Assembly: GCA_964652095.1 (NCBI GenBank)
Contig: CAZZAC010000002.1
Span: 1-60,152, forward strand
Source: an uncultured Dehalococcoidales bacterium
Lineage (GTDB): Bacteria > Chloroflexota > Dehalococcoidia > GIF9 > AB-539-J10
Reading direction: 5' to 3'
DNA: 60,152 nucleotides
Below, piece by piece: positions 36,711 to 60,089 of this stretch. A program made the translations under genes and the position numbers. The stretch's first letter is position 1; each line of letters opens with the position of its first letter. The notes under the pieces are model-generated. The model was given only the letters and a program-made list of their open reading frames with translations. It had not been told where the DNA came from and ran no database searches.

Positions 36711-36774
36711 GGTATCCCGAGGACATAATGCCTAATTTGTAGTAGGCCTGATTGGTATGGTATCCCTGGAATTC
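36711..36774 (+). repeat. 64-nt hairpin repeat (family 1), copy A
   Basis: ggtatcccgaggacataatgcctaatttgtagtaggcctgattggtatggtatccctggaattc. It begins 2 nt after the argG stop. Confidence 0.9.
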
Positions 36775-36880
36775 TCACATGCCGGGGATTGTGCAACTGC
36801 GATTTGGTACATCACACCATCCACTCTGCTGTTCAATGCCTAGAGACATGTGCAATAGCATACTAATAGGGGCAGAAGTC

Positions 36881-37579
36881 CTAACCTTTAGCGAGTGCCA
36901 GATTGACCGCTGCTTCCGCATGGAGCCGAGTAGTATCAAATATCGGAGCATGTATCTCACTGGGCCGGACAAGCAAGGAGAGTTCAGTGCATCCGAGCAC
37001 AATACCCTCGGCACCCTTATTAACCAATTTGCTAATAATATCGGCACAAACACGGCGGGAGAATGCCTTAATCTTGCCCTCACAGAGTTCATCGAAGATA
37101 ATTTGATGGATAGTATCCATATCATCTTCCCCAGGCACAAGCACCTCGATAGCGAAGCTGTCTCGAAGCCGCCCCTGATAGAAAGGCCCTTCCATTACAA
37201 ACCGTGTCCCCAGCAGGCCTATTCGGTGCAGCCCCCGTTCCCTGACGGCATCGCCAGTTACATCAACAATGTGAAGCAGCGGCAGGCCAACTTTCTCCTC
37301 TACGTCATCAGCAACTTTGTGCATGGTGTTTGTGCAAATAACCAAGAAGTCGGCACCAGCCCGCTTAACAGCATTACCTGCACCGATAAGAATACTGGCT
37401 GTGTCATCCCAGCGGCCTTCGCGTTGAGCTCTTATAATCTCATCAAAATCTAAGTTATAAAGAACCAAGCGGGCTGAGTGAAGACCGCTCAGCCTCTGGG
37501 CAACTGACTCATTGATGATTCGATAGTACTCCAATGTAGAATTCCAGCTCATGCCTCCTATTAGTCCAATAACTTTCAT
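36881..37579 (-). CDS. Aspartate/glutamate racemase family protein
   Basis: MKVIGLIGGMSWNSTLEYYRIIN and the second catalytic region GCTEL are present. Confidence 0.8.
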   Translation of the reverse strand: MKVIGLIGGMSWNSTLEYYRIINESVAQRLSGLHSARLVLYNLDFDEIIRAQREGRWDDTASILIGAGNAVKRAGADFLVICTNTMHKVADDVEEKVGLPLLHIVDVTGDAVRERGLHRIGLLGTRFVMEGPFYQGRLRDSFAIEVLVPGEDDMDTIHQIIFDELCEGKIKAFSRRVCADIISKLVNKGAEGIVLGCTELSLLVRPSEIHAPIFDTTRLHAEAAVNLALAKG

Positions 37580-37897
37580 AAGTCTCCTCTCTATATGTCT
37601 CAGCTCTGGTTATCAACCAGGACCCTATGAAATCTAATATGTCTCGGGCTCGGTTTAGCCATGAATATAACATACTTTGACACAGCCCGTACTCTCTTGA
37701 CTCTAGCTGAGCAAATTAAGTAAGCACAAATACGAATTGTGTGTGGATGACTTGCAGTGCTCCCAAGGGCAAGAGTAAAATGACCCAGAAACAGCAGAGC
37801 CTTGGGAAGTCTCCATAACCTCACATGACTTTTGATCGTATCATTTTCTTGTGTCGAATAGTCACGGCCTGCATAGCTATGGTTAGCCTCAAGGATA

Positions 37898-39340
37898 ATG
37901 AAGACAGATAAACACGACGAGCTTCAAGAGACTACTGCACGTCTCGGTACGGAGCGGCTGAGCAAGCTGCTCCTCCGCCTGAGTGCGCCCAGCATTGTCT
38001 CAATGATAACCATCTCTCTCTATCACCTAGCTGACACATTCTGGCTGGGTCAGCTCAGCTATCAGGCGATTGCCGCTGTAACCATTACCTTTCCGTTTTA
38101 TATTGCCGTGGTCGCCATCGGTGTTGGCACGGGTGTTGGCGCCAACGCCTTAGCATCGCGGCGTTTCGGTGAAAGAAACATCGAGGCAACCAACCAAGTG
38201 GCTGGCCAGATCTTTCCTCTGACTGCTGTATTTGGTGTTGTTTTCATCGTTGCCAGCGTCTTCTTTGCCAGACAGTTAGCTGCCCTACTCGGGGCTACAC
38301 CGGACATTGTAACCCTGACGGCGGATTACATCTTTTTCTTAGGCTGGGGAGTGCCATTTATGCTTTTTCGACTCATGTCACGCAACGTCTTCCACGCGGC
38401 TGGGGATGCTGTCAAGCCGATGATTTTCACTGTTGTTGGCGCTGTGCTCAATGCCATCCTCGACCCATTCTTTATCTTTGGTTGGGGGCCTTTCCCGGAG
38501 ATGGGTGTTGGTGGGGCTGGGTTGGCGACGACGATATCCGGCGGAATCGCTGCTGTACTCAGTTACTACTATCTGGTCGGCGGAAGATCCGTCTACAGGT
38601 TGAAGCTGCATCACCTCAGACCTAACTTTTCTATCATGGCACAGATCTACCGTGTGGGCTTGCCATCGCTTTTGATGGAACTAACAGAAACAATCATTTT
38701 CATCATATTCAACCGGATTGTCGCTGGTTTCGGTTCAATAACGCTGGCAGCCCTGGGAATTGCGATACGTATTGCCGACCTCGCGTTTATGCCCATCGTC
38801 GGTGTTGCCCATGGTCTTCTGCCAATTGTTGGCTTCTGCTTGGGGGCACGCCTCTGGGAGAGGCTGTGGTCAGCTGTCAAGCTGGCCTCCCTCGCTCTAG
38901 TGGTGTTGCTGGGCGTCGCGACTATCTTCCTGGAAATTTTCACTCCACAGGTAATAGCTATTTTCAATAATGACCCTGATCTGCTGGCCATCGCCGTGCC
39001 GGGTATGCGCATTTTCATTTCAACTCTCATTCTGATTGGTCCGGCCATTATGTTCATTACCACATTTCAGGGATTATCCAAAGGGTGGACGGCCACTGCT
39101 CTATCACTGGTGCGTGAGTTGGTTTTTTTCATCCCGGCAGTGCTTATCCTGCCCCGCTTCATGGGGCTGAACGGCGTCTGGCTGTCTCTGCCCATCGCAG
39201 ACGTCTGCGGTACCGCTATCGCCGGGTTCTGGCTTTACCGTGAGTACCAGTTACAGAAGCGTAGTGGCATCTGGGATAATGCCCCGGTGACGGAGCCCAT
39301 ATCGGAGTCTGTATCGAAAGGCCGGTCTACGCTTGATTGA
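37898..39340 (+). CDS. MATE-family efflux transporter
   Basis: 480 aa with about 12 TM segments and a MATE-like N-terminus (LLRLSAPSIVSM...). Confidence 0.85.
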   Translation: MKTDKHDELQETTARLGTERLSKLLLRLSAPSIVSMITISLYHLADTFWLGQLSYQAIAAVTITFPFYIAVVAIGVGTGVGANALASRRFGERNIEATNQVAGQIFPLTAVFGVVFIVASVFFARQLAALLGATPDIVTLTADYIFFLGWGVPFMLFRLMSRNVFHAAGDAVKPMIFTVVGAVLNAILDPFFIFGWGPFPEMGVGGAGLATTISGGIAAVLSYYYLVGGRSVYRLKLHHLRPNFSIMAQIYRVGLPSLLMELTETIIFIIFNRIVAGFGSITLAALGIAIRIADLAFMPIVGVAHGLLPIVGFCLGARLWERLWSAVKLASLALVVLLGVATIFLEIFTPQVIAIFNNDPDLLAIAVPGMRIFISTLILIGPAIMFITTFQGLSKGWTATALSLVRELVFFIPAVLILPRFMGLNGVWLSLPIADVCGTAIAGFWLYREYQLQKRSGIWDNAPVTEPISESVSKGRSTLD

Positions 39341-39566
39341 CATAGGTGAAACCTACCACTCTTTCGGATTGCCGAAGTTCCCGTTAAACTGCGTGAAACC
39401 CTTTGCCTGATTGCGCTTCCGTTGAACATTTCCAACGAATGTGCAGCCTACCTTCGCCGTCTTGCTTAATAAACGTAGACTCAGTATGTTTGTCGTGATG
39501 AAGGCACTTCCTTGTACGAGTCTCCAAAAAGCATATGAAGAGCATGAAGAGATTTCTCACGTAGTC

Positions 39567-39630
39567 GGTATTCCGGGGACATAACATCGAACTTGCAGTA
39601 GGTCTAATTGGTATAATGTCCCTGGAATTC
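39567..39630 (+). repeat. 64-nt hairpin repeat (family 1), copy B
   Basis: ggtattccggggacataacatcgaacttgcagtaggtctaattggtataatgtccctggaattc. It lies between convergent gene ends. Confidence 0.9.
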
Positions 39631-39648
39631 GACCCAGCGAATAGCTGA

Positions 39649-39993
39649 CTACGCTAGTCTCATGGTGATAAACGCTGTTGCTAAATAAGCTGCAACACTC
39701 GCTAGAAGTGACACCACCAATCCCAAACGAGGCAGAGGAAAAATCACGCCAACGACATAAAGCACCTAGGCAGGCAATAGTATTATCATACTCTTGGCAT
39801 AAGAAATAGCTGCCCCTGTGCCGCCAGCAAAGTATATGGTGCACACAATTATCAGACTGGTACGGGGTAAGAAAGCAATGAAGACAGCAAGTTCACTCTT
39901 TCCTTGGCTCTCAAAATAGGTTACGACCGAGACTACAAGTCCGCCTATCACAAAGTATGCTATTAGTAACTTGAGGTCCACGATGTTTTTCAA
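39649..39993 (-). pseudogene. Small 4-TM membrane protein (DUF3147/GlpM-like, tentative) interrupted by one in-frame TAG
   Basis: The 75-codon ORF (39766-39993) ends at TAG 39766-39768. The same frame then continues for 38 hydrophobic codons (VLYVVGVIFPLPRLGLVVSLLASVAAYLATAFITMRLA) to TAG 39649-39651. The combined length is 114 aa. Confidence 0.5.
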
Positions 39994-40089
39994 GCTTGAG
40001 GTCGCTTATACCATATAGCCTGGCAAACATGACGACACGAACTGCCAAGTTGCGACGGAGGGCAGCAACATTCGCTAGTACGGGACTGA

Positions 40090-40983
40090 CTAGTCACGAG
40101 CCAAGATATCCCTGACCTGCACGGCGAAAGCCTCGCTCTTAGCATCTCCGGTGACAAGCTGAATCTGCTTTGCCGAGGATACGCCCAGTCCCAGCTCAGC
40201 GGCTCGTGCAATCTGCTCTTGTTCGAAGATAGACCCGCGGCTGACCTCTGGTGTCGTCCCCAACAGACGGAGAATCGCCACCCCCACCGCATCGATGGCC
40301 ACTCGGTCGGTGCCAGCAAGCATCACCTTAGCTTCTACTTTGGTGCCACGGTCGGGCCCACCGTCAACAAAAGCCTCCACGCCATCCAGAACCACTAAGT
40401 CGGGCGAATAAGCGGTATTAATCTCAGCAATCATTTGCCGCTGGTACCGTGATGAGTGAAGTTCCCCCATATAGGGATAGCCTGCCAAGGGGACAAGTCC
40501 TACCGTGTTCTTCAAAGAGAGTGTGAAATGGCCGCCGTAAGCATGTGTCTTAAGGCAGCAGGTCTGGACAACTGATTCCGCTTCGAGATAAATCCGGGGA
40601 AAATGAAAACCCTGGCTCCAATGACTCTCTTTAGGCTCTATCTTGCTCCAGCCTTCGGGACCTAACTCTTCCAGATTAAGGATGTTGAAGCCCAGCTCTT
40701 GAGCTAGCCTGAAAATCCCCTTCTTCTCCATAACCGTCCGGGTGCTATTTCCGGGTCCGCTTCGCTCAGCCAGGGTAATCTGCTTTGCTTCCATTTGCTG
40801 AAGAGTTGGAACTAGAGACCACAGTGTGTCGTTATGCGTGGAACCCGGTGCCGGGTCAGCCGTGTTGAAATTAGGTTTCAGAACCACGGATTTGCCACGG
40901 AAAGATTTCAACTCGAGGAGGTCTATTGATTGTCTGACACCTTCACCTCGGTTCTTGGTGCTTACCAGTGCCACTTTTGTCAT
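40090..40983 (-). CDS. DUF362 domain-containing protein
   Basis: GKSVVLKPNFNTADPAPGSTHNDTL is typical of DUF362. ATG 40983 has a GGAGAAAG RBS. Confidence 0.7.
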   Translation of the reverse strand: MTKVALVSTKNRGEGVRQSIDLLELKSFRGKSVVLKPNFNTADPAPGSTHNDTLWSLVPTLQQMEAKQITLAERSGPGNSTRTVMEKKGIFRLAQELGFNILNLEELGPEGWSKIEPKESHWSQGFHFPRIYLEAESVVQTCCLKTHAYGGHFTLSLKNTVGLVPLAGYPYMGELHSSRYQRQMIAEINTAYSPDLVVLDGVEAFVDGGPDRGTKVEAKVMLAGTDRVAIDAVGVAILRLLGTTPEVSRGSIFEQEQIARAAELGLGVSSAKQIQLVTGDAKSEAFAVQVRDILARD

Positions 40984-41212
40984 ACCAACTTTCTCCATCT
41001 ATCGAGCATAGCCTAATTATAGCTGATATACGCCAGTCAAACCAAGCTCACAAAGTCAGTGCTCCAACTACGGATTACAGCCTACATCGTTGCCACTGCG
41101 CAAAACGCGAGATTGTTCAACGATGCCACTCCCACATTTGCTGACGATACTTCAAATACAGGGCGACAAGAGATATAATTCGGTGTAGCCTAATATAATA
41201 AGAGGTTAACCG

Positions 41213-42127
41213 ATGGCTCCCGATGAAATAACAGGACTCATCTGCTCCAAGCTGGAGGAGAAAGGTTATCGCGGTACAGTGTTGTCCATCGAGCATGTCG
41301 CTCAACTCAAATATGAAATAGAAGAGTGCCTCAGCCAGAGAAAAATAGACGCGGGATTGTATGAGAAATACCTGACTTATTTTGAATTCGATGTTACCGC
41401 CAGTCTTCCAAGGGCTTGTTCAATCATAATAACTGCAGCTCCACAACCTCAGCGCAAAATCACCTTCCATTTCAACGGGCAGACCTATTTGGTCATAATC
41501 TCTCCTACTTACTATGCTGACACAGATAACCAAATTAGAAACATGCTTCAAAGCATTCTTAATTCTAACAACTACCAGCTTTACCCGGCTGCGTTGCCGC
41601 TGAAGTTATTGGCAGTGTACAGCGGAATGGCAGAGTATGGGAAGAACAACATCGCTTACGTAGAAGGTCTGGGGAGCTTTGTTCGACTCAAAGCCTTTCT
41701 TTCAGACATGCCGACTGGCAGAGGTGAGTGGTTGGAACCGCAGGTAATGAAAGAATGTGATAGGTGCAAGTCATGTCTTAATGAATGTCCTACCGGAGCG
41801 ATTGTCCCGGACCGCTTCTTGATTCATGCGGAGAGATGCATTACCTTCCTTAATGAATGGAGAGAAGAGTTTCCTGAATGGATAGACCCAGCCTGGCACA
41901 ATAGCCTTATAGGCTGCATGAAGTGCCAGCTTGTCTGCCCGGTGAACAAGCGTTTTATCAAATGGGTGGAAGAGGGAGAAGATTTCAATGAAGCTGAGAC
42001 CGAGTTAATCCTGAATGGAGTACCACTTGATCGCATCCCGCCTGAAACAGCTCACAAACTCAACCGTTGCTATATGCTGGAATACCTGGACGTGCTACCG
42101 AGGAACTTGCGTGCCCTCTTAAAGTGA
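41213..42127 (+). CDS. Epoxyqueuosine reductase (QueG)-like 4Fe-4S dicluster protein
   Basis: Two ferredoxin-type motifs (CDRCKSCLNECPTGAI, CMKCQLVCPVN) follow a QueG-like core (SGMAEYGKNNIAYVEGLGSFVRL). Confidence 0.65.
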   Translation: MAPDEITGLICSKLEEKGYRGTVLSIEHVAQLKYEIEECLSQRKIDAGLYEKYLTYFEFDVTASLPRACSIIITAAPQPQRKITFHFNGQTYLVIISPTYYADTDNQIRNMLQSILNSNNYQLYPAALPLKLLAVYSGMAEYGKNNIAYVEGLGSFVRLKAFLSDMPTGRGEWLEPQVMKECDRCKSCLNECPTGAIVPDRFLIHAERCITFLNEWREEFPEWIDPAWHNSLIGCMKCQLVCPVNKRFIKWVEEGEDFNEAETELILNGVPLDRIPPETAHKLNRCYMLEYLDVLPRNLRALLK

Positions 42128-42255
42128 TTATTCGCAACAGCGGGTTTTTGTTGTTTACATCTCTGAGTGCCCTGTTATTTATCTCCGCTGTGCCAGATTA
42201 CGTGCTAGCAATACACCGACTGCACCGAAGTCAGTATTGTTCTCCGGTTATACCA

Positions 42256-42319
42256 AGTATTCTGGGGACATAATGCCTGATTTGGAGCAGGCCTAATTGG
42301 TATGGTGTTCCTGGAATTC
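42256..42319 (+). repeat. 64-nt hairpin repeat (family 1), copy C
   Basis: agtattctggggacataatgcctgatttggagcaggcctaattggtatggtgttcctggaattc. It lies 14 nt from the methyltransferase stop. Confidence 0.9.
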
Positions 42320-42332
42320 GCGGTAAACACGC

Positions 42333-43022
42333 TTACTTGCGTTTCTTAAGTGTAATCTCCATCCAAATATCTGTTAGCGCCATCTGGTAGTTGCCTTTGA
42401 ATGTCGTTTGCTCTAGCATACCCTTGATTATGGTCTGGTATTCTTCCCAGGTGAAACCATGCAGTGTAGAGACCCTGTGTCCAAGTCGGCCAACGAAGAA
42501 CCCGTATTCCTTGTTCAGTTTTCTTCTATCAGCCCGATTGCTGAAAACCTCAGGACATCCATCGTATATCCAGGCTTCTTTGCCGGTTTTTAGAACGCGA
42601 TAGCATTCATCAAACACCAGGCGCGGTGTCTTCCAATGGTGCGAAGCGCCCGTACTAATCACAACGTCTATCGAATTATCCTTGAAAGGGAGTTTGGCCG
42701 CATTGCCAAACACAAATCGAGCATTATCAACGCCTTTGGCATGGCGTCTGGCAATCTTGACCATTTGCCTGCTGAGATCGATGCCATAGACCTGCAGGCT
42801 GGGTGACTTCTTGGCAATCTCTATTGACAAATAGCCTGTTCCCGAACCCAAATCAAGAATAGTTCCCTTTCCCATCTGTGCCACTATGTTATTAGCTATC
42901 TTTGTTTCAGGCTTTCGAAGAACTTTTGCCACTGTCGCATTGTAGAATATGGCACCAGGGGTTGGGATTGATTCAGGTTTCCTCAGTAAATCCTTGATGA
43001 ATCTTGTTAGAGACATGGTCAT
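42333..43022 (-). CDS. Class I SAM-dependent methyltransferase
   Basis: ILDLGSGTGYLS (motif I) is present, with UbiE/COQ5-like architecture. Confidence 0.8.
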   Translation of the reverse strand: MTMSLTRFIKDLLRKPESIPTPGAIFYNATVAKVLRKPETKIANNIVAQMGKGTILDLGSGTGYLSIEIAKKSPSLQVYGIDLSRQMVKIARRHAKGVDNARFVFGNAAKLPFKDNSIDVVISTGASHHWKTPRLVFDECYRVLKTGKEAWIYDGCPEVFSNRADRRKLNKEYGFFVGRLGHRVSTLHGFTWEEYQTIIKGMLEQTTFKGNYQMALTDIWMEITLKKRK

Positions 43023-43026
43023 TCCT

Positions 43027-43090
43027 CATATTCCGGGGACATAATACCTAATTTGCAGTAGGCCTAATTGGCATGGCGCCCCTAGAATTC
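43027..43090 (+). repeat. 64-nt hairpin repeat (family 1), copy D (most diverged)
   Basis: catattccggggacataatacctaatttgcagtaggcctaattggcatggcgcccctagaattc. It fills the 71-nt gap between the Vms1-like gene stop and the methyltransferase start. Confidence 0.85.
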
Positions 43091-43093
43091 CCG

Positions 43094-43858
43094 CTAAGAG
43101 TTATCCGCGCACCATTCGATAACATCGGTTGACCAGACAGTGCCCACGGCTTTTTCCAGTACCGCCTGGCGTGGCTCCCGTATATCCAGCAGCGTCCGCA
43201 GGATGCGGTCGTCAAATTGGCTCAGGAACGGGCACCGTTTGCGCAGTGAGAGGATGGTAGTCCTTGCTCCGCCATAGACCAGATAGTCGAGTGACCGGGC
43301 ATGGGGCTCGATATTCTCCCGCACGTGACCGCAAACCCGGCCCAGAAACTGCTCTATTTGCTTTTCCCGGTGTCGGGCAAACCGCGCCTGCGAGGAGCCA
43401 CCCTTTTTGTGGCGGGCGTGCACCAGGCCTGTTCCCGTCTTGCTATCTATGAACTCTGTGCCCCGGCAGATGCCAATACTGTATGCTCCCAGGCGGACCA
43501 GAACCAGAGCGATAAGGAAGTCGTGACTGATAAGAGAACACAACGGTCCAACATCATAGCCGTCGGTGATATATTCTTCGGCAATCGGGAATGGTGGCAG
43601 GACCAGATACGTTTGCAGCGGGCTCCAGAAAAACGCCGCTCCCATTCTCGAGCCGGCAATAGCCTCAGCCACGCCTGGCGGTATGGCAGTTGCGGCAAAC
43701 ACCTTTCCCAGCAGATTTTCCACTCTGGCTTGAGGCATCCCCCGTGGGAGATATAACGACATCGCCTTGCCTTCAGTCGAAGCCAGCTCGTCCAGAAAGC
43801 TGAGCGCCTTCGACCTGCCGAGACGGAATCTCTTCGATACAAACATAATATCAATCAC
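43094..43858 (-). CDS. Vms1/ANKZF1-like peptidyl-tRNA hydrolase (acVLRF1-type eRF1-fold release factor)
   Basis: The motif HARHKKGGSSQARFARHRE (GGSSQ encoded at 43388-43402) matches the GxxQ catalytic loop of the VLRF1 family. The length is about 250 aa. The gene lies 22 nt downstream of mutS2. Confidence 0.7.
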   Translation of the reverse strand: MIDIMFVSKRFRLGRSKALSFLDELASTEGKAMSLYLPRGMPQARVENLLGKVFAATAIPPGVAEAIAGSRMGAAFFWSPLQTYLVLPPFPIAEEYITDGYDVGPLCSLISHDFLIALVLVRLGAYSIGICRGTEFIDSKTGTGLVHARHKKGGSSQARFARHREKQIEQFLGRVCGHVRENIEPHARSLDYLVYGGARTTILSLRKRCPFLSQFDDRILRTLLDIREPRQAVLEKAVGTVWSTDVIEWCADNS

Positions 43859-43880
43859 CCGGCCGAATGAAATACTCTGG

Positions 43881-46268: not shown

Positions 46269-46413
46269 GGTAACCTTCCCGAGTCGCCTATACTCTCATC
46301 GCCATATTAATAATCATCGAATAGTATAAAGCAATCACCCCAGTTTTCAAAAAATCGGCTTCTCCAGCCAGGGGCGGACGAGATTACTTACGTCGTTTTA
46401 AAGAGGGTTCCAA

Positions 46414-46477
46414 GGTATTCTGGGGACATAATGCCTGATTTATGATAGGCTTAATTGGTATGGTGTCACTGGAATTC
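46414..46477 (+). repeat. 64-nt hairpin repeat (family 1), copy E
   Basis: ggtattctggggacataatgcctgatttatgataggcttaattggtatggtgtcactggaattc. It sits in the divergent promoter region between mutS2 and the AMP-ligase gene. Confidence 0.9.
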
Positions 46478-46479
46478 CA

Positions 46480-50852: not shown

Positions 50853-50915
50853 AAATGTAACCTCCCTTTATGCTTTCAAAGTTATTTCCCATCCCTCGCT
50901 TCTGGTGCTTCGCCC

Positions 50916-51560: not shown

Positions 51561-51642
51561 TGTTATTGATACCTCCCTTTATGTTTTGGCCTATAATGTG
51601 TTCACTTTCTAATTTAAGCATGCCCTATAATTTGTTGCAAGG

Positions 51643-51706
51643 GGTATTCTGGGGACATAATACCTGATTTGTAGTAGGCCTAATTGGTACGGTATCCCTG
51701 GAATTC
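51643..51706 (+). repeat. 64-nt hairpin repeat (family 1), copy I
   Basis: ggtattctggggacataatacctgatttgtagtaggcctaattggtacggtatccctggaattc. Its 3' 27 nt encode the last 8 codons and the stop of the 5'-nucleotidase ORF on the opposite strand. Confidence 0.95.
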
Positions 51707-53710
51707 TTTGTACTTTCTCCTACGGAGGAGCAGGAATACTATTCCCGCCGCAGTAACTGCCAGTATTAAGATAAGCCACCCTACCAGGGGGAAAGTCCAG
51801 GTTTTGTTGATGCGCCCGGCAACAGCTTCATAATAATCGGGTATCCGGGGTATTCCATCTACTCCCGGCAGCTGGGCCGCGGCGTAAATCACCACCGCCT
51901 CCCAAACTTTGAGCTCTTTTCCGTCGGCATTATGCACTATCAATTCGCCCAATCTTTCCAGCGGTACCGGCTCTCCATCGGCATTTTTAGGGACTATCTC
52001 CAGCTGGGGCAGCATGTCTGTCACCAAGGGGAGGAAGAGGAGGATGTAGGCGTCGGTAACCAGGTGGTACAACTTTTCATCTCCGCGCTTTAAGGGGACA
52101 TACCCTTCACCGTTTACAGGTTGAATCCCATCACCCGTGTAAAGCTCTGCTCTAGTAACCGCACGGGTCGTGGGAATAGGCAGGTTTACAAAAGGTATGG
52201 TCAAGAGCACTGCATTGGCGGGGTTGTAGCTGTACCGCAGGCCGGAGAACTGTAGAAAGAAAGAATCTCCCACAAACTCCTGCAGCAGTATGGTTACCTC
52301 CAGCAGACGGCGCACTTCTTCGCCGGTGAGATAGACAGACGCAATGGGACAACCTGCGTAGCCGTCGCGTCCGTGTCCCATGCCTGTAGCTTCGACAATC
52401 TCATAAAAGGAAACGTTTCCTGCAGAGTGTTCCATGGTGCCAGGAAAGATGCTTGTCCGGATGCAGCCGCTAGCCTGACATGCTACGTCGACCCTCTTGC
52501 CGATGACCTCCTGGGCAACCATGCGCATGGCGTCGGTAACGAAGTTGCCGAGCGGAGTTTCACTCAAGGGCAGCTGGTTGGACAGGATAAAGTCAGACCT
52601 GGCTACCGTACTCATGATATCGTCGAATTTGCCGCCGGTCATTTCATCGATGTACGCATTCAAGATGAGGGTATATTCCCGGACCAGGGCATCGATTTCC
52701 GGATGGCAGGCAAAGCTGTCGTCAATGGGAATAAGAAAGGGGCGGTCGTTTTCTTCGTTGCGCACCCGTACCTTGCCGGTGTTGGAGTTGTACGCCAGTT
52801 CAAGTTGCCCCAGGTACCTTCCCAGGGAACCAGCCTGGACAATGATGGTAGCGCCCTGTAAGACTGGCTTATATAGGGCGGTCTCACTGTGGCCGCCTAC
52901 GATTACGTCGATACCCGGGACCTCTCGTGCCAGTTCCCGGTCCTCATCCACGCCAGAGTGAGTTATGCCCACGATGACATTTGCACCCTGTTCTTTCAGC
53001 TCATCTACCGCCTGGCGGGCCGCCTCGTGCTGGTCCAGGAACTGCACGTCCCCGGTTTCACCGATTACCAGGATGGCGTCTTTACCTATAAGGCCGAAAA
53101 CTCCTACTTTCAGGCCGTTTTCCAGCTCAAACATCCCGGCCTTTCTGTAGAGACCCCGGGCAGCCAGCGGATGGGCTGGTGGCGCCTCCGTGTTGGAGGC
53201 CAGTACCAATGTTTTTTGGTGGGCTTCGGGGTATCCGGCCTGTAAAAGGTATTGCGCCAGGACGTCAGGGCCGTAATCGTACTCATGGTTGCCGATGACT
53301 ACGGCGTCATATCCCATCTCCTGCATTATGGTAAGCTCTGCGGCGTAACCACGGAGGGCCAGCCAAGCGAAAGCAGAGCCTCCCAGGAAATCACCGGCGT
53401 CAAAAAGAAGGACCGGCTCACCTTCCTTCATTTTGTTCTCTCGGATTTCGTCCACGGCGGTAGCCAGACGAGCGAACCCTCCTATAGCAGGGTCTTCTTT
53501 TTCGGGGTCGTAGTCTACTGCCGGCGAATGGGGTATCAGCGCGGACTGCATATCGTTGGTATGGAGTATACAGAAATACAGCTCTTCGGTTTCACCTGCG
53601 TAACTTTTCAAATTTCCCGGAATGCCCAGGAATGAGGCGACTACCAGGATGGTTATCAGAATACAGAACAACCCTTTGTTTGCCCTGAAAAGGCTGTTTC
53701 TGTTACACAT
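51680..53710 (-). CDS. Bifunctional metallophosphatase / 5'-nucleotidase with C-terminal membrane anchor
   Basis: Calcineurin-like motifs (HTNDMQS, GDFLGGS, GNHEYD, GGHSE), a 5'-nucleotidase C-terminal domain, a signal peptide and a C-terminal TM helix are present. The tail EFQGYRTN* is encoded by repeat I. Confidence 0.8.
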   Translation of the reverse strand: MCNRNSLFRANKGLFCILITILVVASFLGIPGNLKSYAGETEELYFCILHTNDMQSALIPHSPAVDYDPEKEDPAIGGFARLATAVDEIRENKMKEGEPVLLFDAGDFLGGSAFAWLALRGYAAELTIMQEMGYDAVVIGNHEYDYGPDVLAQYLLQAGYPEAHQKTLVLASNTEAPPAHPLAARGLYRKAGMFELENGLKVGVFGLIGKDAILVIGETGDVQFLDQHEAARQAVDELKEQGANVIVGITHSGVDEDRELAREVPGIDVIVGGHSETALYKPVLQGATIIVQAGSLGRYLGQLELAYNSNTGKVRVRNEENDRPFLIPIDDSFACHPEIDALVREYTLILNAYIDEMTGGKFDDIMSTVARSDFILSNQLPLSETPLGNFVTDAMRMVAQEVIGKRVDVACQASGCIRTSIFPGTMEHSAGNVSFYEIVEATGMGHGRDGYAGCPIASVYLTGEEVRRLLEVTILLQEFVGDSFFLQFSGLRYSYNPANAVLLTIPFVNLPIPTTRAVTRAELYTGDGIQPVNGEGYVPLKRGDEKLYHLVTDAYILLFLPLVTDMLPQLEIVPKNADGEPVPLERLGELIVHNADGKELKVWEAVVIYAAAQLPGVDGIPRIPDYYEAVAGRINKTWTFPLVGWLILILAVTAAGIVFLLLRRRKYKEFQGYRTN

Positions 53711-53803
53711 TAACGATTACCCTTCTCCTTAAGACAGTACAAGCCCGGTCGACAACCAGCGTCTTAAAGGAAAAACTACTGAATGATATCATAGACTACA
53801 CCT

Positions 53804-53873
53804 GGTATTCTGGGACATAATACCTGATTTGTAGTAGGCCTGATTGGTATGGTGTCCCTGAAATTACCAATTC
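53804..53873 (+). repeat. Hairpin repeat (family 1), copy J, variant 3' end
   Basis: ggtattctgggacataatacctgatttgtagtaggcctgattggtatggtgtccctgaaattaccaattc, with a 1-nt deletion in the 5' arm. Confidence 0.9.
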
Positions 53874-53883
53874 CGAAGACCCT

Positions 53884-53901
53884 GTACTAACGTCTTAGTA
53901 C
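53884..53901. promoter_or_regulatory. Palindrome GTACTAA-cgtc-TTAGTAC (operator candidate), copy 2
   Basis: Identical to 49810-49827. Confidence 0.35.
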
Positions 53902-53911
53902 GTATGGGGAC

Positions 53912-53941
53912 TTGACAACTGGTCTATATATGTGCTAGTAT
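53912..53941 (+). promoter_or_regulatory. Promoter with extended -10, copy 2
   Basis: Identical to 49838-49867. Confidence 0.5.
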
Positions 53942-53947
53942 TAACAT

Positions 53948-54098
53948 TGTCCCGAGTAGCCGAGCAGGAACCTGGCATAAGAGTTGGGTTTGGTGGAAGC
54001 TTAAAGGTGCAGGTAGTGGCCAGCACAAGGTAAGCTGAGGGCCAGGCCGGACGATAGCAGGTGAAGTAAGTGAGGTTACTCGGGGCGTCTGATTTTTT
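53948..54098 (+). ncRNA. Candidate structured sRNA, copy 2
   Basis: It differs from copy 1 by 9 substitutions, all outside the three helices I propose. The closing helix and U-tract are the same. Confidence 0.45.
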
Positions 54099-54134
54099 GC
54101 TGGCTAAGCATCCCTGTCGCAGCTTGAAATGACC

Positions 54135-54174
54135 CAATAAATAGGCTTGATACTTGCGTGGATATCAGCCTATT
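54135..54174 (-). terminator. Minus-strand hairpin plus U-rich tail downstream of the Lpd-like gene
   Basis: Identical to the hairpin at 50061-50100. Confidence 0.4.
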
Positions 54175-54222
54175 CAAGTTTGACTCTTAACCACAGTTCA
54201 CCATCTACGCCTTTGATTCCGT

Positions 54223-54286
54223 GGTATTCTGGGGATATAATACCTGATTTGTAGTAGGCCTAATTGATATGGTGTCCCTGGAATTC
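54223..54286 (+). repeat. 64-nt hairpin repeat (family 1), copy K
   Basis: ggtattctggggatataatacctgatttgtagtaggcctaattgatatggtgtccctggaattc. Confidence 0.95.
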
Positions 54287-54349
54287 TGATGATAACCAAA
54301 TCATATGCATCTTTCATTGACCACCTCCAAGACCCATTATATTGCGAAT

Positions 54350-55720
54350 CTAGGAATCCTCTAGGCTATTGATGGTGTACTTTACTAGTTCTGAAAGGGC
54401 AGGGTGAATGTGAATTCCCTGTTCGAGCTCCTCCATACCGCCACCGGATGTCATTGCGTTGACAACTTCTTGAATGAGCTCTGGTGCGTACGGCCCTATG
54501 ATATGAAAACCAAGTATTCTGTTGCTACCTTTCTCCACTATTGCCTTAGCGAAACCCTCCTTTTCCATCATGGCCTCGCCCTTGGCAATATCGAAGTATT
54601 TCATCCTACCGATGAGAACATCATGGCCTTCCCTAGCCTGCACCTCCGTCATGCCTACCGACGCAACCTGAGGATGTGAGTACACCGCGTGAGGAACGGC
54701 GCTGTAGTCAACCTTGATATTCGTGCCATAGAAGGCATTCTGCGCAACGATTTCAGCTTCCCTGTTAGCCATATGCCTGAACATCTGCTGGCCGTTGGCA
54801 TCCCCAATAGCGAAAATACCCCTCCGATTCGTCTCGAGGTATTCGTTGACCTTGACAAAGCCCTTCTTGTCTGTCTCCACTCCGGTATTTTCTACTTTTA
54901 ATATATCTGCGTTAGACCTTCTACCCACAGCCATCATAATCCTTTGTGCAGCAAATTCCCTGCGCTTGCCGGAATTAGTATCCTTTGCAATAACCACAAC
55001 ACCATGCTCGCTTTGTTTTACTTCCTCTACCAAGGCATTTGTATGGACTCCCATGCGCTTGCTCAACTCATTCCCCAGGAGTGCAGAGATTTCGGGGTCC
55101 TCGGATAGAACCAACCTGTCAGCCATCTCGAGAATGGCAACTTCAGTGCCCATAGCCGCAAAGAAATGCCCGAATTCTACAGCGATATAGCCACCACCAA
55201 TGATGATGAGGCTGTCCGGTTTTTCTTTTAGCTCCAGCACCGATTCGTTGGTAAGGTAGTCTACATTTTCCGAGCCTTTAATCGGAGGTATGAACGGTCG
55301 CGATCCGGATGCAATGAAAATCCTTTCCCCTTTAAGTTTCTCTCCATTGACCTCAAGCAGGTAGTCACCCACGAAATATCCTTCACCTTCATAAAAATCC
55401 AGGTTCTTAGACTGCTTGATACCCTTTCTAATATGAACCTGACTTTCCTGTCTGCTCTTTCTCATCCTCTCCATTATTGATTTAAAATCTACGTTCTTTA
55501 TCTCCGCTTCAATACCCAGCTTCTTCCCTTCCTCAATTTCTACAATGCGGTCGGCTGTGTAAATCAGCATTTTGGATGGTATACAACCCCAGTTGAGGCA
55601 AGTTCCGCCTATTAATGGTCCCTTGTCTATGAGTGCTGCCTTTAGACCTTGCGCTGCGGCTTCTTCCGAAATGATTGCTCCAGCCCCCGAGCCGATGACT
55701 ATAACGTCGTAACTCTTCAA
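54350..55720 (-). CDS. Pyridine nucleotide-disulfide oxidoreductase (dihydrolipoyl dehydrogenase family)
   Basis: GSGAGA FAD fold, redox-active GGTCLNWGCIPSK, and a C-terminal dimerisation domain with HIHPALSE. Confidence 0.75.
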   Translation of the reverse strand: MKSYDVIVIGSGAGAIISEEAAAQGLKAALIDKGPLIGGTCLNWGCIPSKMLIYTADRIVEIEEGKKLGIEAEIKNVDFKSIMERMRKSRQESQVHIRKGIKQSKNLDFYEGEGYFVGDYLLEVNGEKLKGERIFIASGSRPFIPPIKGSENVDYLTNESVLELKEKPDSLIIIGGGYIAVEFGHFFAAMGTEVAILEMADRLVLSEDPEISALLGNELSKRMGVHTNALVEEVKQSEHGVVVIAKDTNSGKRREFAAQRIMMAVGRRSNADILKVENTGVETDKKGFVKVNEYLETNRRGIFAIGDANGQQMFRHMANREAEIVAQNAFYGTNIKVDYSAVPHAVYSHPQVASVGMTEVQAREGHDVLIGRMKYFDIAKGEAMMEKEGFAKAIVEKGSNRILGFHIIGPYAPELIQEVVNAMTSGGGMEELEQGIHIHPALSELVKYTINSLEDS

Positions 55721-55831
55721 TGTTGATCACCTCCTTCTCCGTGTTTATCACTTTTGCGTTTACACGGTCTAAACCACTTGTCAATATAACTGTCTCTCTC
55801 GTGATAAGAGGGTTAGGTTGGAGTCATTTTA

Positions 55832-56896
55832 TCACGTCAATTCGATCACCGTTTTGATATTATCTGGATCGGGATCAAGCCCATCCCTGAACTTATGCAG
55901 TGTAAGCCGTCGAGTAATTAGTCTTGCTAGCCAGCCAGGCCATTTCTTTTCTATACAAAGCAGTGACTCGACTGATCTTTCAAAATGGCTACGGTTAGAA
56001 CTGACGGTGCCGAATACTGTCTTATTACCCAACACCATCTGCATGTTTAAACACGAAGCATCAACCTCAAGCGGCTTCTGGCCGGTCGATACTCCCATCA
56101 GGCATAAAATCCCGTTTGTCCCCAGGGCACTCATCGCCTGGAAGGCGACAGTACTATTGCCGGTAACTTCCATAATCAGATCAAGATTCCCAATCTTATG
56201 TGGTAAACTCACGACCGGTGACTCATTTCCGTCGACGTAATTGGCACCGATGCTTTCGACAAGTTGTGCCTTCACACTTGATCTAGGCACTACATCAAGA
56301 GTGTATATATTGTAATCATGAAGCTTTAGCAGTGCCGTCGTCAGCAGGCCTAATGGTCCCGCCCCAAGCACCACGGCGATGTTAATTGAATTGGCACTTC
56401 GATTATGAAATCCTATAGCCTTTTCTATTCCCTTTGTAGCAATGCTTGTTGGTTCGGTAAGCACAGCGATATTTCGTAGTTCTTCGGGAACCGGCACCAA
56501 GAAAGCTGCATCTTCAGCAAGATACTCTCTCAGAAATCCATGCGCACCCTTTATGCCACATTCTTGGTAGTTACCCTTAAGGCACATATCAGGCTGGCCT
56601 CTCCGACAGTCAACACAGTCGTCGGGACGCCTGACCATCGGCACTACAAATTCGCCCTTGCCCAACTCCGTTGTACCAGGATTCTCAATCTGACCGAGAG
56701 CTTCGTGCCCCCAGACAATGAAGTCATTGTCTGGGGGTGGTTCTCCGTATTCACCCCGGTTGATCTCTATATCGGTACCATCAATCCCCAATTCAAGCAG
56801 TCTGACCAAGACCTGACCGCCTGAAATGGCTGGCATATCCATTTCAATCAATCTAGCACTGTCTTTTTGCCCTGGTGTTACTACCCCAGCTCTCAT
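55832..56896 (-). CDS. Zn-dependent medium-chain dehydrogenase, glucose 1-dehydrogenase-like
   Basis: GIDGTDIEI..G.YG and WGHEALG resemble archaeal-type glucose dehydrogenases. A GAGPLG Rossmann fold is present. Confidence 0.6.
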   Translation of the reverse strand: MRAGVVTPGQKDSARLIEMDMPAISGGQVLVRLLELGIDGTDIEINRGEYGEPPPDNDFIVWGHEALGQIENPGTTELGKGEFVVPMVRRPDDCVDCRRGQPDMCLKGNYQECGIKGAHGFLREYLAEDAAFLVPVPEELRNIAVLTEPTSIATKGIEKAIGFHNRSANSINIAVVLGAGPLGLLTTALLKLHDYNIYTLDVVPRSSVKAQLVESIGANYVDGNESPVVSLPHKIGNLDLIMEVTGNSTVAFQAMSALGTNGILCLMGVSTGQKPLEVDASCLNMQMVLGNKTVFGTVSSNRSHFERSVESLLCIEKKWPGWLARLITRRLTLHKFRDGLDPDPDNIKTVIELT

Positions 56897-56919
56897 TCTT
56901 CACCTCCCTCTCTTTTCTT

Positions 56920-58713
56920 TTATATCGCCTGTGTTAACTCCAGTCCTGTAATAATAACCGCCAGATGAGTCAAAGCCTGTGGGAAATTACCCAAGGCCTC
57001 TCCTGTAACAGGGTTGACTATTTCAGAAAAAAGACCTAAATGATTACCATAGCCGAGCAGTCTTTCGTAAAGCTCAACGGCATCCTCAAGTTTTCCCAAC
57101 CTAAGTAAGTTGCGAACTAACCAGAATGTGCACCACAGAAATGCGCCTTCAGAACCTTTCAGCCCATCGTCAGTCTCATCAGTTCTGTACCTGCGTAGGA
57201 GGCCATTCCAGCTGAGTTCATCAGTAGCATGGTTGATAGTAGATTTGATCCGCTTATCAGAGACGGGCAAGAAGCCGAAAAGAGGTATTAATAGAGCACT
57301 GGCGTCTAGAGCTTCCGTATCATAGTGCTGGGTAAAGGTCTCCTTCTTTGGGTTCCAGCCCTTAGTCAGAATGTCACTGCGTATATCCTCGGCAGCCTGA
57401 CGCCAGTAACCGACCTTCTCGTTTCGCTCGAGACTCTGGGCCAGTTTTATTCCCCTATCTACAGCTACCCAGCACATGACTTTAGAGTGAACAAAATGGA
57501 ACGGACCTCCCCTTACTTCCCAGATGCCACTGTCTGGTTCTGGCCATAGTTCACAGGCAGCATCAACAAATGTCTCCAGTAGTTTCCAGTCCTTACTACT
57601 TATGTAGCCGCCGATTTTTACATAGTTGTACGCTGCTTCGAGCACTTCGCCAAAGATATCCAGCTGGCGCTGGTTATAAGCACCATTACCGATTCGTACC
57701 GGCCGGGACCTACGGTAGCCTTCCAAGTGATCTAGAGTTCGTTCATCAAGAGGATCCCCAAAATCGATATCGTATAGAATCTGTGCTTTAGGGCCACATC
57801 TTTCGCATACGTTGAGTAACCATTTCATGAAGCCGATAGCTTCTTCTTTGTGTCCCAGCGAAGAAAAAGCATTGAGGGTAAGAGAGGCATCACGGAGCCA
57901 TGTAAAGCGGTAGTCCCAGTTTCTTTCGCCACCGATTTCTTCAGGGAGGGAGGTGGTTGGAGCGGCGACGATTGCTCCTGTCAGCGAGTATACCAGCAGG
58001 TGTAGGGCCAGGTAAGAGCGCACTATATAATATCGATATGGACCCGAATAAACACAGCCCTCTGCCTGTTGCTGCCAGTATCCCTTTGTTTGAGAAAGCT
58101 TGATCAGTGAGTTCTTTATAACACCGGTGAGCGGTTTATCCGAACCATACCTTAATACGAAGACAACTTTCTCTCCACGCTGCAGGTTAACAGTTGCCGT
58201 GGCTTGGTCTCCGAGATCTTTGAATGGGACGGACGACGATAGTGATACAGGAGCTCCGCCACCTGTGACCACTACACCATACTGTGCGACAGTTAGCGAG
58301 GGATCAACTGTAGCATATCCTGGTTTGGGCTTAAATGTGACCGTGAGCTCGACTTGCCCGTCAGTGCACTCTGCCATACGATGGATTTCATTGAATTGTA
58401 CGTGTTTGCCATCCGTCCTTTCGTAGCAGGGCATGAAGTCCGTTAACGTCACTGTACCAGTGTCAGTTTGAAAAACCGTCTGCAACACGTTGGTTTCACC
58501 CAAATAAGATTGACTGGATTCGAAGTGCAAGCTCGGTTTTATGCCAAACCTTCCACCTTTCTCATCGTCAAGAATGGCGGCAAATATGCTGGGCGAATCA
58601 AACCTGGGAAGACAGCACCAGTCAATGGAACCATCCCTGGCTACCAGGGCTGCTGAAACCATGTTCCCAATGATGCCGTAGTCACTAATCGGTTTATAGA
58701 CCAAACCTGACAC
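56920..58713 (-). CDS. Glycoside hydrolase family 15 (glucoamylase/trehalase-type)
   Basis: The N-terminal ISDYGIIGNMVSAALVARDGSIDWCCLPRFDSPSIFAAILD is typical of GH15. 597 aa. Confidence 0.8.
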   Translation of the reverse strand: MSGLVYKPISDYGIIGNMVSAALVARDGSIDWCCLPRFDSPSIFAAILDDEKGGRFGIKPSLHFESSQSYLGETNVLQTVFQTDTGTVTLTDFMPCYERTDGKHVQFNEIHRMAECTDGQVELTVTFKPKPGYATVDPSLTVAQYGVVVTGGGAPVSLSSSVPFKDLGDQATATVNLQRGEKVVFVLRYGSDKPLTGVIKNSLIKLSQTKGYWQQQAEGCVYSGPYRYYIVRSYLALHLLVYSLTGAIVAAPTTSLPEEIGGERNWDYRFTWLRDASLTLNAFSSLGHKEEAIGFMKWLLNVCERCGPKAQILYDIDFGDPLDERTLDHLEGYRRSRPVRIGNGAYNQRQLDIFGEVLEAAYNYVKIGGYISSKDWKLLETFVDAACELWPEPDSGIWEVRGGPFHFVHSKVMCWVAVDRGIKLAQSLERNEKVGYWRQAAEDIRSDILTKGWNPKKETFTQHYDTEALDASALLIPLFGFLPVSDKRIKSTINHATDELSWNGLLRRYRTDETDDGLKGSEGAFLWCTFWLVRNLLRLGKLEDAVELYERLLGYGNHLGLFSEIVNPVTGEALGNFPQALTHLAVIITGLELTQAI

Positions 58714-58783
58714 GCTCCTTCATTTCTCTTACTTGATCTTATTGCCATAGCTACATAGACTTAAGGCCTTGTTCCTGTATCGA

Positions 58784-59746
58784 CTATTCGCGAATAAAAT
58801 CGCTGATCTGTCCCTGGCGACGCTCTCGCACGGTTGCCGGATCATGTCCGTACTTGTGTCCTCCAAATCCGTGCCGCATCATCGCTATTGCCCGTGCCCA
58901 AAACTTATCATCGTCGCGCGAGGAGATAAGCTGCATAACAGCCTGTGCAATGACCGGCACAGGAACCTCCATGTGCATGGCATCGTCCACCAGCCAGTTC
59001 ACTTCACCAGTGTCGTCGACATAGGCAGGTATCTTGTCTAATCCGTCCTCTTCTCGATATGCCGCTTCCATAAGGTCTATGAGCCAGGAACGGATAACAG
59101 ACCCGTGGCGCCAGCATCGCAGTATCTCTTTGATATCGAGTTTTTCCCTGTAGTGCTCAAGAAGGTCAACACCTTCACCAATTGCCTGGAGCATACCGAA
59201 CTCTATTCCGTTATGGACAAGCTTGGTGAAATGGCCTGCTCCAGGCGGTCCAGCATGAACGTATCCCCTTGGTGTAGCAAGCTCGATCAGGATTGGTTCG
59301 ATTCGGGCTATTGGCTCCATGTCACCACCGGCCATAAAGCAAGCACCATGGCGGGCACCTTCCACACCACCGCTTGTCCCGAGGTCAACGAAGTTGATTC
59401 CCTTTTCAGATAGACTTCGATGGCGGCGTATTGAGTCGCCCCAGTAGGAGTTACCCGCATCGACAATAATGTCACCCTTATCTACATGTGGAACAATATC
59501 GTCGATAACACTGTCGACAGCCGGTCCAGCAGGAACGTAGATGAATAAGGGTCGAGCTGGCGATAACTTGTCGCGAAAACCATCGAGACTATTAGCCTCT
59601 ACCATGCCGGCCTTTTTTAATTCGTCAGACACACTTTTGAGATCAAAACCCACGACGCGCATGCCCTTCTCCAAGGCTTGAAGTGAAAGATTCGCTCCCA
59701 TGCGGCCAAGGCCAACAACACCGAACTCCCTTTTTGCATCTGCCAT
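58784..59746 (-). CDS. gnd: 6-phosphogluconate dehydrogenase (decarboxylating, short form)
   Basis: GVVGLGRMGANL, the NSYW motif and HNGIEFGMLQAIGEG are present. About 320 aa, typical of Gnd-like YqeC-type enzymes. Confidence 0.8.
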   Translation of the reverse strand: MADAKREFGVVGLGRMGANLSLQALEKGMRVVGFDLKSVSDELKKAGMVEANSLDGFRDKLSPARPLFIYVPAGPAVDSVIDDIVPHVDKGDIIVDAGNSYWGDSIRRHRSLSEKGINFVDLGTSGGVEGARHGACFMAGGDMEPIARIEPILIELATPRGYVHAGPPGAGHFTKLVHNGIEFGMLQAIGEGVDLLEHYREKLDIKEILRCWRHGSVIRSWLIDLMEAAYREEDGLDKIPAYVDDTGEVNWLVDDAMHMEVPVPVIAQAVMQLISSRDDDKFWARAIAMMRHGFGGHKYGHDPATVRERRQGQISDFIRE

Positions 59747-59789
59747 GTCATTCTCCTTTATTCAGGATTGATTTGCGTGTTATTAATGC

Positions 59790-60062
59790 TTAATTGCTTA
59801 CCATGGATTTTATAATAGCACGAGCAGGAGCGCCATCTCTTCCAACAATTCTCAGTGGTAAACATATGAGGTTGTATTTGCCAGGCGTTGCATCTGATAG
59901 GTTCAGTCCTTCAATAGTCCATATACCACTACTGAGAAGTGTCTTATGTACATAGGGTCCGCCATGCTTGAAACTCCCGACAGACAGATAATCAGCGCCA
60001 ATCAACTGTATGCCCCGATTCGCAATGTATTCTGTGGAAATAATACCTGATTTGTAGTAGGC
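59790..60062 (-). pseudogene. C-terminal fragment of a cyclase-family (arylformamidase-like) gene, truncated at repeat L
   Basis: ...IQLIGADYLSVGS...IEGLNLSDATPGKYNLICLPLRIVGRDGAPARAI resembles the last third of PF04199 cyclases. The frame runs upstream into repeat L and is closed by the TAG of its central palindrome (60063-60065). Confidence 0.45.
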
Positions 60063-60089
60063 CTAATTGGTATGGTGTCCCTGGAAATC
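60026..60089 (+). repeat. 64-nt hairpin repeat (family 1), copy L
   Basis: tgtattctgtggaaataatacctgatttgtagtaggcctaattggtatggtgtccctggaaatc. Confidence 0.9.

Follow-up and report, generated by a model that had tools for sequence, protein, structure and literature searches.

Sedentary integrons and clusters of attC sites that have no integron-integrase (CALIN), such as the Vibrio cholerae superintegron with its Vibrio cholerae repeat (VCR) attC sites, are long arrays whose cassettes measure about 1 kb and each end in a co-oriented imperfect hairpin of 57-141 nucleotides (nt). Their repeats are homogeneous within a lineage and fold better on one strand, their content includes toxin-antitoxin and non-coding cassettes, and cassettes are acquired, lost, duplicated and rearranged while keeping their orientation. 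Integrons have been reported in Chloroflexi (PMC4889954). Another group of hairpins, the repetitive extragenic palindromes (REPs), comprises palindromes of 20-40 bp with an unpaired GTAG at one end, which occur mostly as inverted pairs and only rarely head-to-tail (PMC3733652). Here we consider a 64-nt imperfect hairpin repeat in a 60,152-nt stretch of DNA from an uncultured Dehalococcoidales bacterium (contig CAZZAC010000002.1, positions 1 to 60,152; hereafter the window). The array that it punctuates shares the integron traits just named, and we assign a probability of roughly 60% to the reading that the repeat both bounds the cassettes and acts as the recombination element in a large cassette array of integron-like type in an uncultured Dehalococcoidia chromosome.

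According to this model, recombination between two co-oriented repeats would excise a circle bearing one repeat, and this circle, by recombining with any other repeat, would be re-inserted in the same orientation. Excision and re-insertion at direct repeats would thereby explain both the shuffling of cassettes and the strict co-orientation of the repeats. Less securely, we propose that a site-specific recombinase whose gene lies outside the array could catalyse the reaction in trans; such an enzyme would recognise the conserved sequence, perhaps in the form of the folded + strand, as integron integrases do with folded attC sites. A broader proposal, which we regard as possible and advance only tentatively, is that a sizeable portion of Dehalococcoidia chromosomes is divided into mobile modules with hairpin borders, essential genes like rpoD included, by a recombination system that has so far gone unrecognised and differs from integrons and REPtrons; its trans-acting recombinase would recognise the 64-nt site, possibly together with the multi-copy structured RNA of the commonest cassette.

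A family of co-oriented hairpin repeats

Mismatch searches for each arm place 12 copies of the repeat in the window, all on the + strand, and a profile (nhmmer) built from these copies recovers the same 12 and nothing else in the window at E<=10. A covariance model run with all filters off yields 12 window matches of 77-95 bits. Its matches on the - strand are only echoes of 12-27 bits at the 12 repeat sites, and positions 1-36700 return only noise (E>2); in dinucleotide-shuffled sequence the mismatch searches for the arms found no matches. These searches bear out the number, start positions and strand of the copies given in a preliminary description made from the letters alone, as well as its statements that no copy precedes position 36711 and that the copies form a genuine structured family. 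The unit length of 64 nt holds for 11 copies; the copy at 53804 carries a 1-nt deletion and measures 63 nt. All 12 copies are intergenic or overlap gene ends only, as judged from the open reading frame (ORF) list, and they occupy convergent, divergent and co-directional gaps, so that their common orientation is not set by transcription. Direct reading confirms stop codons in all three + strand frames of the repeat (TAA, TGA and TAG).

The window corresponds to positions 2976-63127 of the 141-kb metagenome contig Ga0307428_1000029. In the next 10 kb rightward on the same contig (L113; L numbers denote other sequence stretches, from contigs of metagenome-assembled genomes (MAGs) and metagenomes, that were compared with the window) there are 8 more copies in the same orientation, which extends the array at least 10 kb past the window end and brings the count to at least 20 copies within 33 kb of one contig. 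The confinement of the repeats to the last 23 kb had been proposed from the window; it is correct there and fails as a boundary, because the array starts right after argG and extends beyond the window. The repeats of L113 separate HicAB, two nucleotidyltransferase/HEPN pairs, an MscS channel, Fic and rpoD. The last of these, the gene of the primary sigma factor, is flanked by repeats in four lineages, each time with different neighbours (L113:950-2428; L119, L120 and L121:10001-11473). The contigs that carry rpoD of this group are mostly only 2-10 kb long, and a search for rpoD homologues on long contigs revealed additional arrays and no recombinase.

Much wider distribution became apparent from a 24-nt degenerate loop pattern, which was scanned against one genome per species and matched more than 112 stretches in 37 assemblies, almost all of them MAGs of uncultured Dehalococcoidia. 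A few of the matches are short contigs binned under other phyla, which we read as binning errors. A metagenome scan added 119 further stretches, and the profile search across these sources (235 in number, about 1.6 Mb of MAG and metagenome contigs) found 645 copies, at densities of up to one copy per kb. The family sought in the preliminary description is thus widespread. Its non-random orientation also holds far outside the window: 233 of the 235 sources show a single orientation, and the two others, L204 (copies at 425+, 3613+ and 6229-) and L208 (174- and 999+), may mark places where two arrays meet or where a local inversion occurred. Two stretches of one contig, L018 and L064 (JACAEN010000040.1, 8-16 and 32-40 kb), contain the same sequences in opposite orientation, which reflects an inverted duplication or else a palindromic artefact of assembly. 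Across all loci GC skew is +0.078 in + strand genes and -0.076 in - strand genes. This is a coding-strand effect only, with no detectable replication-strand component, and the orientation of the repeat relative to replication can consequently not be read from the skew.

No match was found in Rfam at the gathering score across the whole window, nor at E<=1 around the doublet, so that the match to a known RNA family, which the preliminary description had named as grounds for refutation, was not encountered there. Neither did the literature searched, including that on integrons in Dehalococcoidia and Chloroflexota and on REPs in Chloroflexi, yield a description of the repeat sequence or of these arrays.

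In the fold of the repeat, a basal stem of 13 bp is followed by a 1x1 mismatch, a second stem of 5 bp and a loop of 21 nt. Folding as RNA gives -25.1 kcal/mol for the + strand vs. -17.3 kcal/mol for the - strand, a difference of 7.8, and folding as DNA gives -9.9 vs. -9.0 kcal/mol; this asymmetry arises because three of the pairs are G-T (G-U) wobbles. Single-base bulges are lacking on either strand, and the - strand fold contains two 2x2 internal loops. Across 179 distinct 64-nt copies, which were used for all statistics of constraint, the stem cells comprise 2378 Watson-Crick, 570 G-T and 124 A-C combinations, the three wobbles are retained in 131, 147 and 161 copies (73-90%), and the loop is conserved as strongly as the stem. 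Loop conservation and retained wobbles together point to a recognition that would be sequence-specific and strand-asymmetric. The strongest covariation in the whole unit lies in the loop, between positions 33 and 40, which flank AGGCCT (T-A 67, T-G 53, C-G 45 and C-A 9) and are the sole covarying pair of the repeat. Tolerance of T-G and not of C-A at this pair fits pairing on the + strand. The earlier suggestion that the structure favours the + strand thus stands, on account of the stem cells as well as of this pair, and strand-specific recognition of the repeat in single-stranded form is plausible. About 4% of the copies carry an extra mini-hairpin of 13 or 23 nt in the apical loop above an unchanged basal stem (CCTTCAC..GTGAAGG or GGTCCCCGATTAAATCGGGGA), for example in L012, L018, L070 and L087 (apical part of 45 nt) and in L075 and L225 (55 nt); this resembles the variable terminal structure of attC sites.

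Cassette order and the route of exchange

What the preliminary description overlooked is the main point: the repeats, which it had located correctly, delimit cassettes whose order varies between genomes. Where the window is homologous to other MAGs, the homologous blocks have their limits at repeats. The 238 inter-repeat segments, with a median of 1050 nt, cluster into families, and in nearly every family with several members the left and right neighbours vary among MAGs. In L071, which comes from the closest relative of the window, an NAD-binding unit, a DUF350/transglutaminase unit and a racemase/MatE unit follow each other, corresponding to window units 8, 6 and 1. In L010 the AMP-binding unit precedes the methyltransferase unit, which in L024 is followed by DUF4389. 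The orientation of a cassette relative to its repeat is kept in about 97% of cases (346 same-strand vs. 12 opposite-strand matches of >=300 nt), and most of the 12 opposite-strand matches are short matches between paralogues. A unit contains between one and four genes, or else a gene for a non-coding RNA, and a single repeat closes it. Their content, with nucleotidyltransferase/HEPN pairs, HicAB, MazF-like toxin, Fic and duplicated cassettes, is typical of sedentary integrons; S-adenosylmethionine (SAM) methyltransferases, hydrolases and a radical-SAM protein are also among the recurrent cassette genes.

The array of L120 is likewise anchored at argG and comprises 17 repeats in 16.4 kb. It shares the Fer4, DUF4389, methyltransferase and rpoD units with the window's lineage in an order that is nearly, not fully, alike, and the distance between argG and rpoD is 8 kb in L120 vs. 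about 32 kb in the lineage of the window. Elsewhere, arrays begin behind a DUF2851-like gene that lies downstream of groESL, or beside dtd/fur/znu; right-hand ends are not recurrent. Whole-unit insertions or deletions occur near the anchor in L066 and L081. In the latter, 1.96 kb of extra DNA (L081:4045-6003), within which no recognisable repeat was found, sits precisely at the border where the final base of a repeat meets the methyltransferase unit's first base (window 42319/42320).

Such shuffled orders could in principle be produced by assembly, if contigs were mis-joined at repeats, and many repeat-bearing contigs are indeed short or end at a repeat. Yet the repeat, at 64 nt, is shorter than the final k-mers given in the contig names (k87-k191), and the retention of orientation in nearly all cassettes is not expected of random mis-joins. 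Since the gene order of the window is identical in three independent samples (L113-L115) and arrays sit inside contigs of 100-700 kb, mis-assembly is unlikely, and we consider it extremely improbable as the source of the variation.

Six-frame ORFs of the repeat-bearing DNA were compared with XerD, IntI1, IS608 TnpA, Escherichia coli RAYT (REP-associated tyrosine transposase) and Hin. With these queries, no recombinase was found next to any array and no IntI-like ORF anywhere in the approximately 1.6 Mb. IntI is also absent from the array starts, which are argG, the DUF2851-like gene or dtd. Neither transposase nor integrase is present among the genes of the window, as the preliminary description had stated for a transposase of the RAYT type. 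Two tyrosine recombinases (L078:5896-7086 and L147:5377-6513) were rejected as array enzymes; each abuts a tRNA sequence, and they look like ordinary tRNA-targeting integrative elements. A weak RAYT match in L065 was spurious.

The one RAYT-like gene of the sample (L203:387-851, Pfam Y1_Tnp 7.4e-16) bears on the assignment originally favoured for the window, namely that of a REP-like element mobilised on single strands by a RAYT (IS200/IS605-type Y1), with orientation set by the replication fork. The strand asymmetry of the hairpin, the numerous and intergenic copies, their single orientation over tens of kb and the existence of a RAYT-like gene in this group of organisms all agree with such a mechanism. 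But the GTAG of the repeat (positions 29-32) belongs to the 21-nt apical loop instead of tagging a palindrome at its end, the adjoining TAGGCCTA is an 8-nt palindrome without a loop to fold on, and the copies, of 64 and not 20-40 nt, run head-to-tail where REPs form mostly inverted pairs (PMC3733652). Moreover, the RAYT-like gene is flanked by elements other than the 64-nt repeat, beside which the preliminary description had proposed to look for such a gene. The segment L203:1-1100 is a REPtron, in which 13 copies of GC-rich GTAG REPs of two classical types (GTAGGGGCGGGTCTTGTACCCGCCC and GTAGTGGCGGGGTTTATCCCCGCC, found elsewhere only in L232) surround the gene. This family has no relation to the 64-nt repeat and does not occur in the window, and no Y1 gene was found in the rest of the 1.6 Mb. 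The L203 contig also holds a 64-nt repeat, 6.8 kb from the REPtron. Transposition alone would, in addition, leave unexplained why cassettes move with the repeat. The REP assignment is accordingly unsupported, and we judge this mechanism improbable.

The point of crossover was approached through the linkage of repeat variants to neighbouring cassettes. When all cassette families are included, the whole repeat co-segregates with the upstream cassette and the switch falls at position 64/65. Once the dominant non-coding family (family 0) is left out, only some 10 nt at the start of the repeat track the upstream cassette, and only its last 4 nt the downstream one. A crossover fixed at the 3' end was dropped, as this result had depended on one cassette family; crossover may therefore lie inside the repeat or at its 3' edge. 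A comparison of the region upstream of Fer4 in L120 and the window gave no informative breakpoint.

Homologous recombination between the repeats is the main rival of the integron-like model. It would dispense with a dedicated recombinase: the repeat would be a protein-binding or structural intergenic element or an old, inactive MITE (miniature inverted-repeat transposable element), and RecA-dependent recombination between 64-bp direct repeats, including after DNA uptake, would move the cassettes. The failure of the screen to reveal an enzyme agrees with this, as does the fact that interior repeat positions are linked to neither flanking cassette without family 0. Copies also differ equally within and between loci (14.5% vs. 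15.4% per site in pairwise comparison), with essentially no concerted evolution within genomes save a modest excess of within-locus identity at loop positions 33 and 40, and Campbell-type integration likewise gives direct repeats. On the other hand, homologous recombination leaves unexplained the origin of a 64-nt sequence with conserved loop and wobbles, the pairwise repeat identity of about 85% across species whose genes are 75-90% identical, the near-absence of inverted copies and the L081 breakpoint exactly at the 3' end of the repeat. We hold this rival to be live, if on balance unlikely.

Several points have to be set against the integron-like model itself. Besides the missing recombinase, the linkage obtained without the dominant family agrees with crossovers at any position within the repeat, such as homologous recombination would produce. 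The main stem shows no compensatory signal over the 179 copies (22 double changes observed vs. 19.3 expected under independence), which reduces the paired changes once singled out in copy B to an anecdote. Near argG, L005, L079 and L040 keep units 1-4 or 2-4 in window order, and part of the variation could thus stem from simple gain and loss of genes in a region dotted with repeats. Finally, genes lie on both strands, with 60% of the coding nucleotides antisense to the repeat, and cassettes include essential or housekeeping genes such as rpoD and MutS2; in both respects the arrays differ from classical integrons.

The cassettes of the window

The left anchor is argG (argininosuccinate synthase, Pfam; 35507-36709, + strand), and the first repeat begins 2 nt past its stop codon, a junction that is also seen in L068, L066, L082, L013, L050, L005 and L120. 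From here the array, delimited by profile and covariance model, occupies 36711-60152 with 12 co-oriented + strand repeats and 11 inter-repeat cassettes, and it runs off the window end. In what follows, repeat copies are given with their covariance model scores and cassette genes with their Pfam assignments.

Repeat copy 1 (36711-36774, 80.9 bits) precedes cassette 1 (36775-39566), which encodes an Asp/Glu racemase (36881-37579, -) and a MatE transporter (37898-39340, +); it is found beside other cassettes in L071 and is collinear in L005 and L079. Between copy 2 (39567-39630, 77.2 bits) and copy 3 (42256-42319, 87.5 bits), cassette 2 (39631-42255) carries a DUF362 gene (40090-40998, -) and a gene for a 4Fe-4S protein (41213-42127, +), the Fer4 gene that forms a stand-alone cassette directly after argG in L120. 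Cassette 3 (42320-43026, -) consists of a SAM methyltransferase gene (42333-43022), and the exactly repeat-bounded block 42325-43027 occurs with other neighbours in L015, L024, L110, L040 and L010. Copy 4 (43027-43090, 78.6 bits) is followed by cassette 4 (43091-46413, -) with genes for an acVLRF1 release-factor-like protein (43094-43858) and MutS2/Smr (43881-46268). This cassette recurs in L027, L050, L040, L061, L049 and L045 with varying left neighbours, and its two genes (43094-46268) are plausibly a ribosome-rescue pair that travels as a unit.

Copy 5 (46414-46477, 82.3 bits) and copy 6 (48090-48153, 94.7 bits) enclose cassette 5 (46478-48089, +), which encodes an AMP-binding enzyme (46548-48041). 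Cassette 6 (48154-49728, +) combines DUF350 (48347-48832) with a transglutaminase-like protein (48829-49698) and is followed by copy 7 (49729-49792, 89.9 bits), the non-coding cassette 7 (49793-50148, +) and copy 8 (50149-50212, 90.7 bits). In cassette 8 (50213-51642, -) an NAD(P)-binding protein (50211-50852) is encoded next to DUF4389 (50916-51560), two genes that are found separately in L071, L024, L010 and L120. The last 27 nt of copy 9 (51643-51706, 90.2 bits) overlap the 3' end of the - strand ORF for a 5'-nucleotidase/metallophosphatase (51680-53710), which makes up cassette 9 (51707-53803, -) and recurs in L077, L042 and L103 with differing right neighbours. The 63-nt copy 10 (53804-53866, 81.7 bits) introduces cassette 10 (53867-54222, +), a second copy of the non-coding cassette that is 95.8% identical to cassette 7. 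Between copy 11 (54223-54286, 90.5 bits) and copy 12 (60026-60089, 82.7 bits) lies the four-gene cassette 11 (54287-60025, -), which encodes a pyridine-nucleotide disulphide oxidoreductase, a glucose dehydrogenase-like protein, a GH15 glucoamylase/trehalase-like protein and a 6-phosphogluconate dehydrogenase (6PGD)-like dehydrogenase; L069 contains a 96.8% identical block.

The non-coding cassette represents the commonest family (18 of the 238 segments, in many MAGs), and a third, truncated copy follows the window at L113:7274-7556. A promoter-like site, TTGACA-18-TAGTAT (49838-49867), is conserved in it, together with a highly conserved RNA of about 150 nt that ends in an 11-bp terminal closing stem and a U-run. 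The consensus fold of this RNA reaches -51.6 kcal/mol and has no match in Rfam, and conservation is equally high in the 125 nt downstream. It may act as a small RNA or belong to a toxin-antitoxin or a recombination system; a search for complementarity of the cassette RNA to the repeat gave shared 7-mers only. The cassette opens with CCAATTCCGAAGACCCTG, which copies in inverted orientation a part of the right arm of the repeat before it (…GTCCCTGAAATTA), at window 49786-49815 and 53860-53889, and this junction could form a second hairpin.

The genes of the window are otherwise ordinary chromosomal genes on both strands, among them dnaE, argJ-argB-argD-argG, MutS2 and the Chloroflexi-type VLRF1. 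Two tandem serpin genes (427 and 430 aa; 6492-9150 and 9265-11289) stand beside genes for a beta-propeller protein and an extracytoplasmic function (ECF)-type sigma factor. Near the left end of the contig, a 473-aa ORF (349-1770) with an IstB/DnaA-like AAA ATPase domain could encode a DnaC-like loader or an IS21 helper.

Relation to described systems

Given the likeness set out at the beginning, the array might simply be an ordinary CALIN with unusual-looking attC sites and a standard IntI elsewhere in the genome. Array architecture, cassette sizes, toxin-antitoxin content and the imperfect hairpin of a length within the attC range would all be accounted for, and integrons are, as mentioned, known in the phylum. 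However, attC sites have RYYYAAC (R'') and GTTRRRY (R') boxes, of which AAC and GTT are the most conserved part, whereas the consensus of the repeat contains neither on either strand and its flanks are unconserved. The recombinogenic strand of attC has extrahelical bases and an unpaired central spacer, whereas the repeat has one 1x1 mismatch and no bulged bases; its loop, unlike that of integron sites, is as conserved as its stem. Integron cassettes are mostly single, promoterless, co-oriented ORFs, whereas here genes lie on mixed strands, units comprise several genes and one non-coding cassette has a promoter-like site of its own. Integrons start at intI/attI, whereas this array starts at the core gene argG, with no IntI-like ORF near any array. 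An ordinary CALIN is therefore very improbable in our view.

If recombination at the repeats is enzymatic, the arrays would represent a second answer, of distinct sequence, to the task that integrons perform, the storage and reshuffling of genes behind folded hairpins, in a class of widespread, uncultured and environmentally important bacteria. The site and its recombinase might then be of use as a new pair for genome engineering. The position of rpoD inside an array calls into question the view of such arrays as stores of accessory genes only, and a new multi-copy structured RNA is indicated. Repeat arrays also offer an explanation for fragmented Dehalococcoidia bins and for contigs of this lineage in bins of unrelated phyla.

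Among the other systems, REPs and bacterial interspersed mosaic elements (BIMEs) with their RAYT, or REPtrons, share with the repeat the short, intergenic, high-copy hairpins, the G-T pairs that suggest a single-strand function and the GTAG; they differ in that the repeat has its GTAG inside, exceeds them two- to threefold in length and is strictly head-to-tail, and no RAYT is flanked by it. The palindrome-associated transposable elements (PATEs) derived from IS200/IS605 show similar hairpin recognition, strand specificity and long-range coherence of orientation. They have two different hairpin ends and move themselves, whereas here a single type of hairpin borders host genes, and the screen gave no TnpA. 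Xer-dependent modules, namely integrative mobile elements exploiting Xer (IMEX) at dif and the pdif modules of Acinetobacter plasmids, also consist of genes bounded by short sites with the recombinase encoded elsewhere, and CTX-type elements use a folded single-strand hairpin. The dif-type sites measure 28 bp (11-6-11) and pdif sites alternate in orientation, unlike the 64-nt co-oriented repeat; its GGGGACATAAT...ATTTGTA bears a weak resemblance, by eye, to a dif half-site. Altogether, the array works like a sedentary integron or CALIN but fails several of the defining features of attC, and is best read as a non-canonical, integron-like system.

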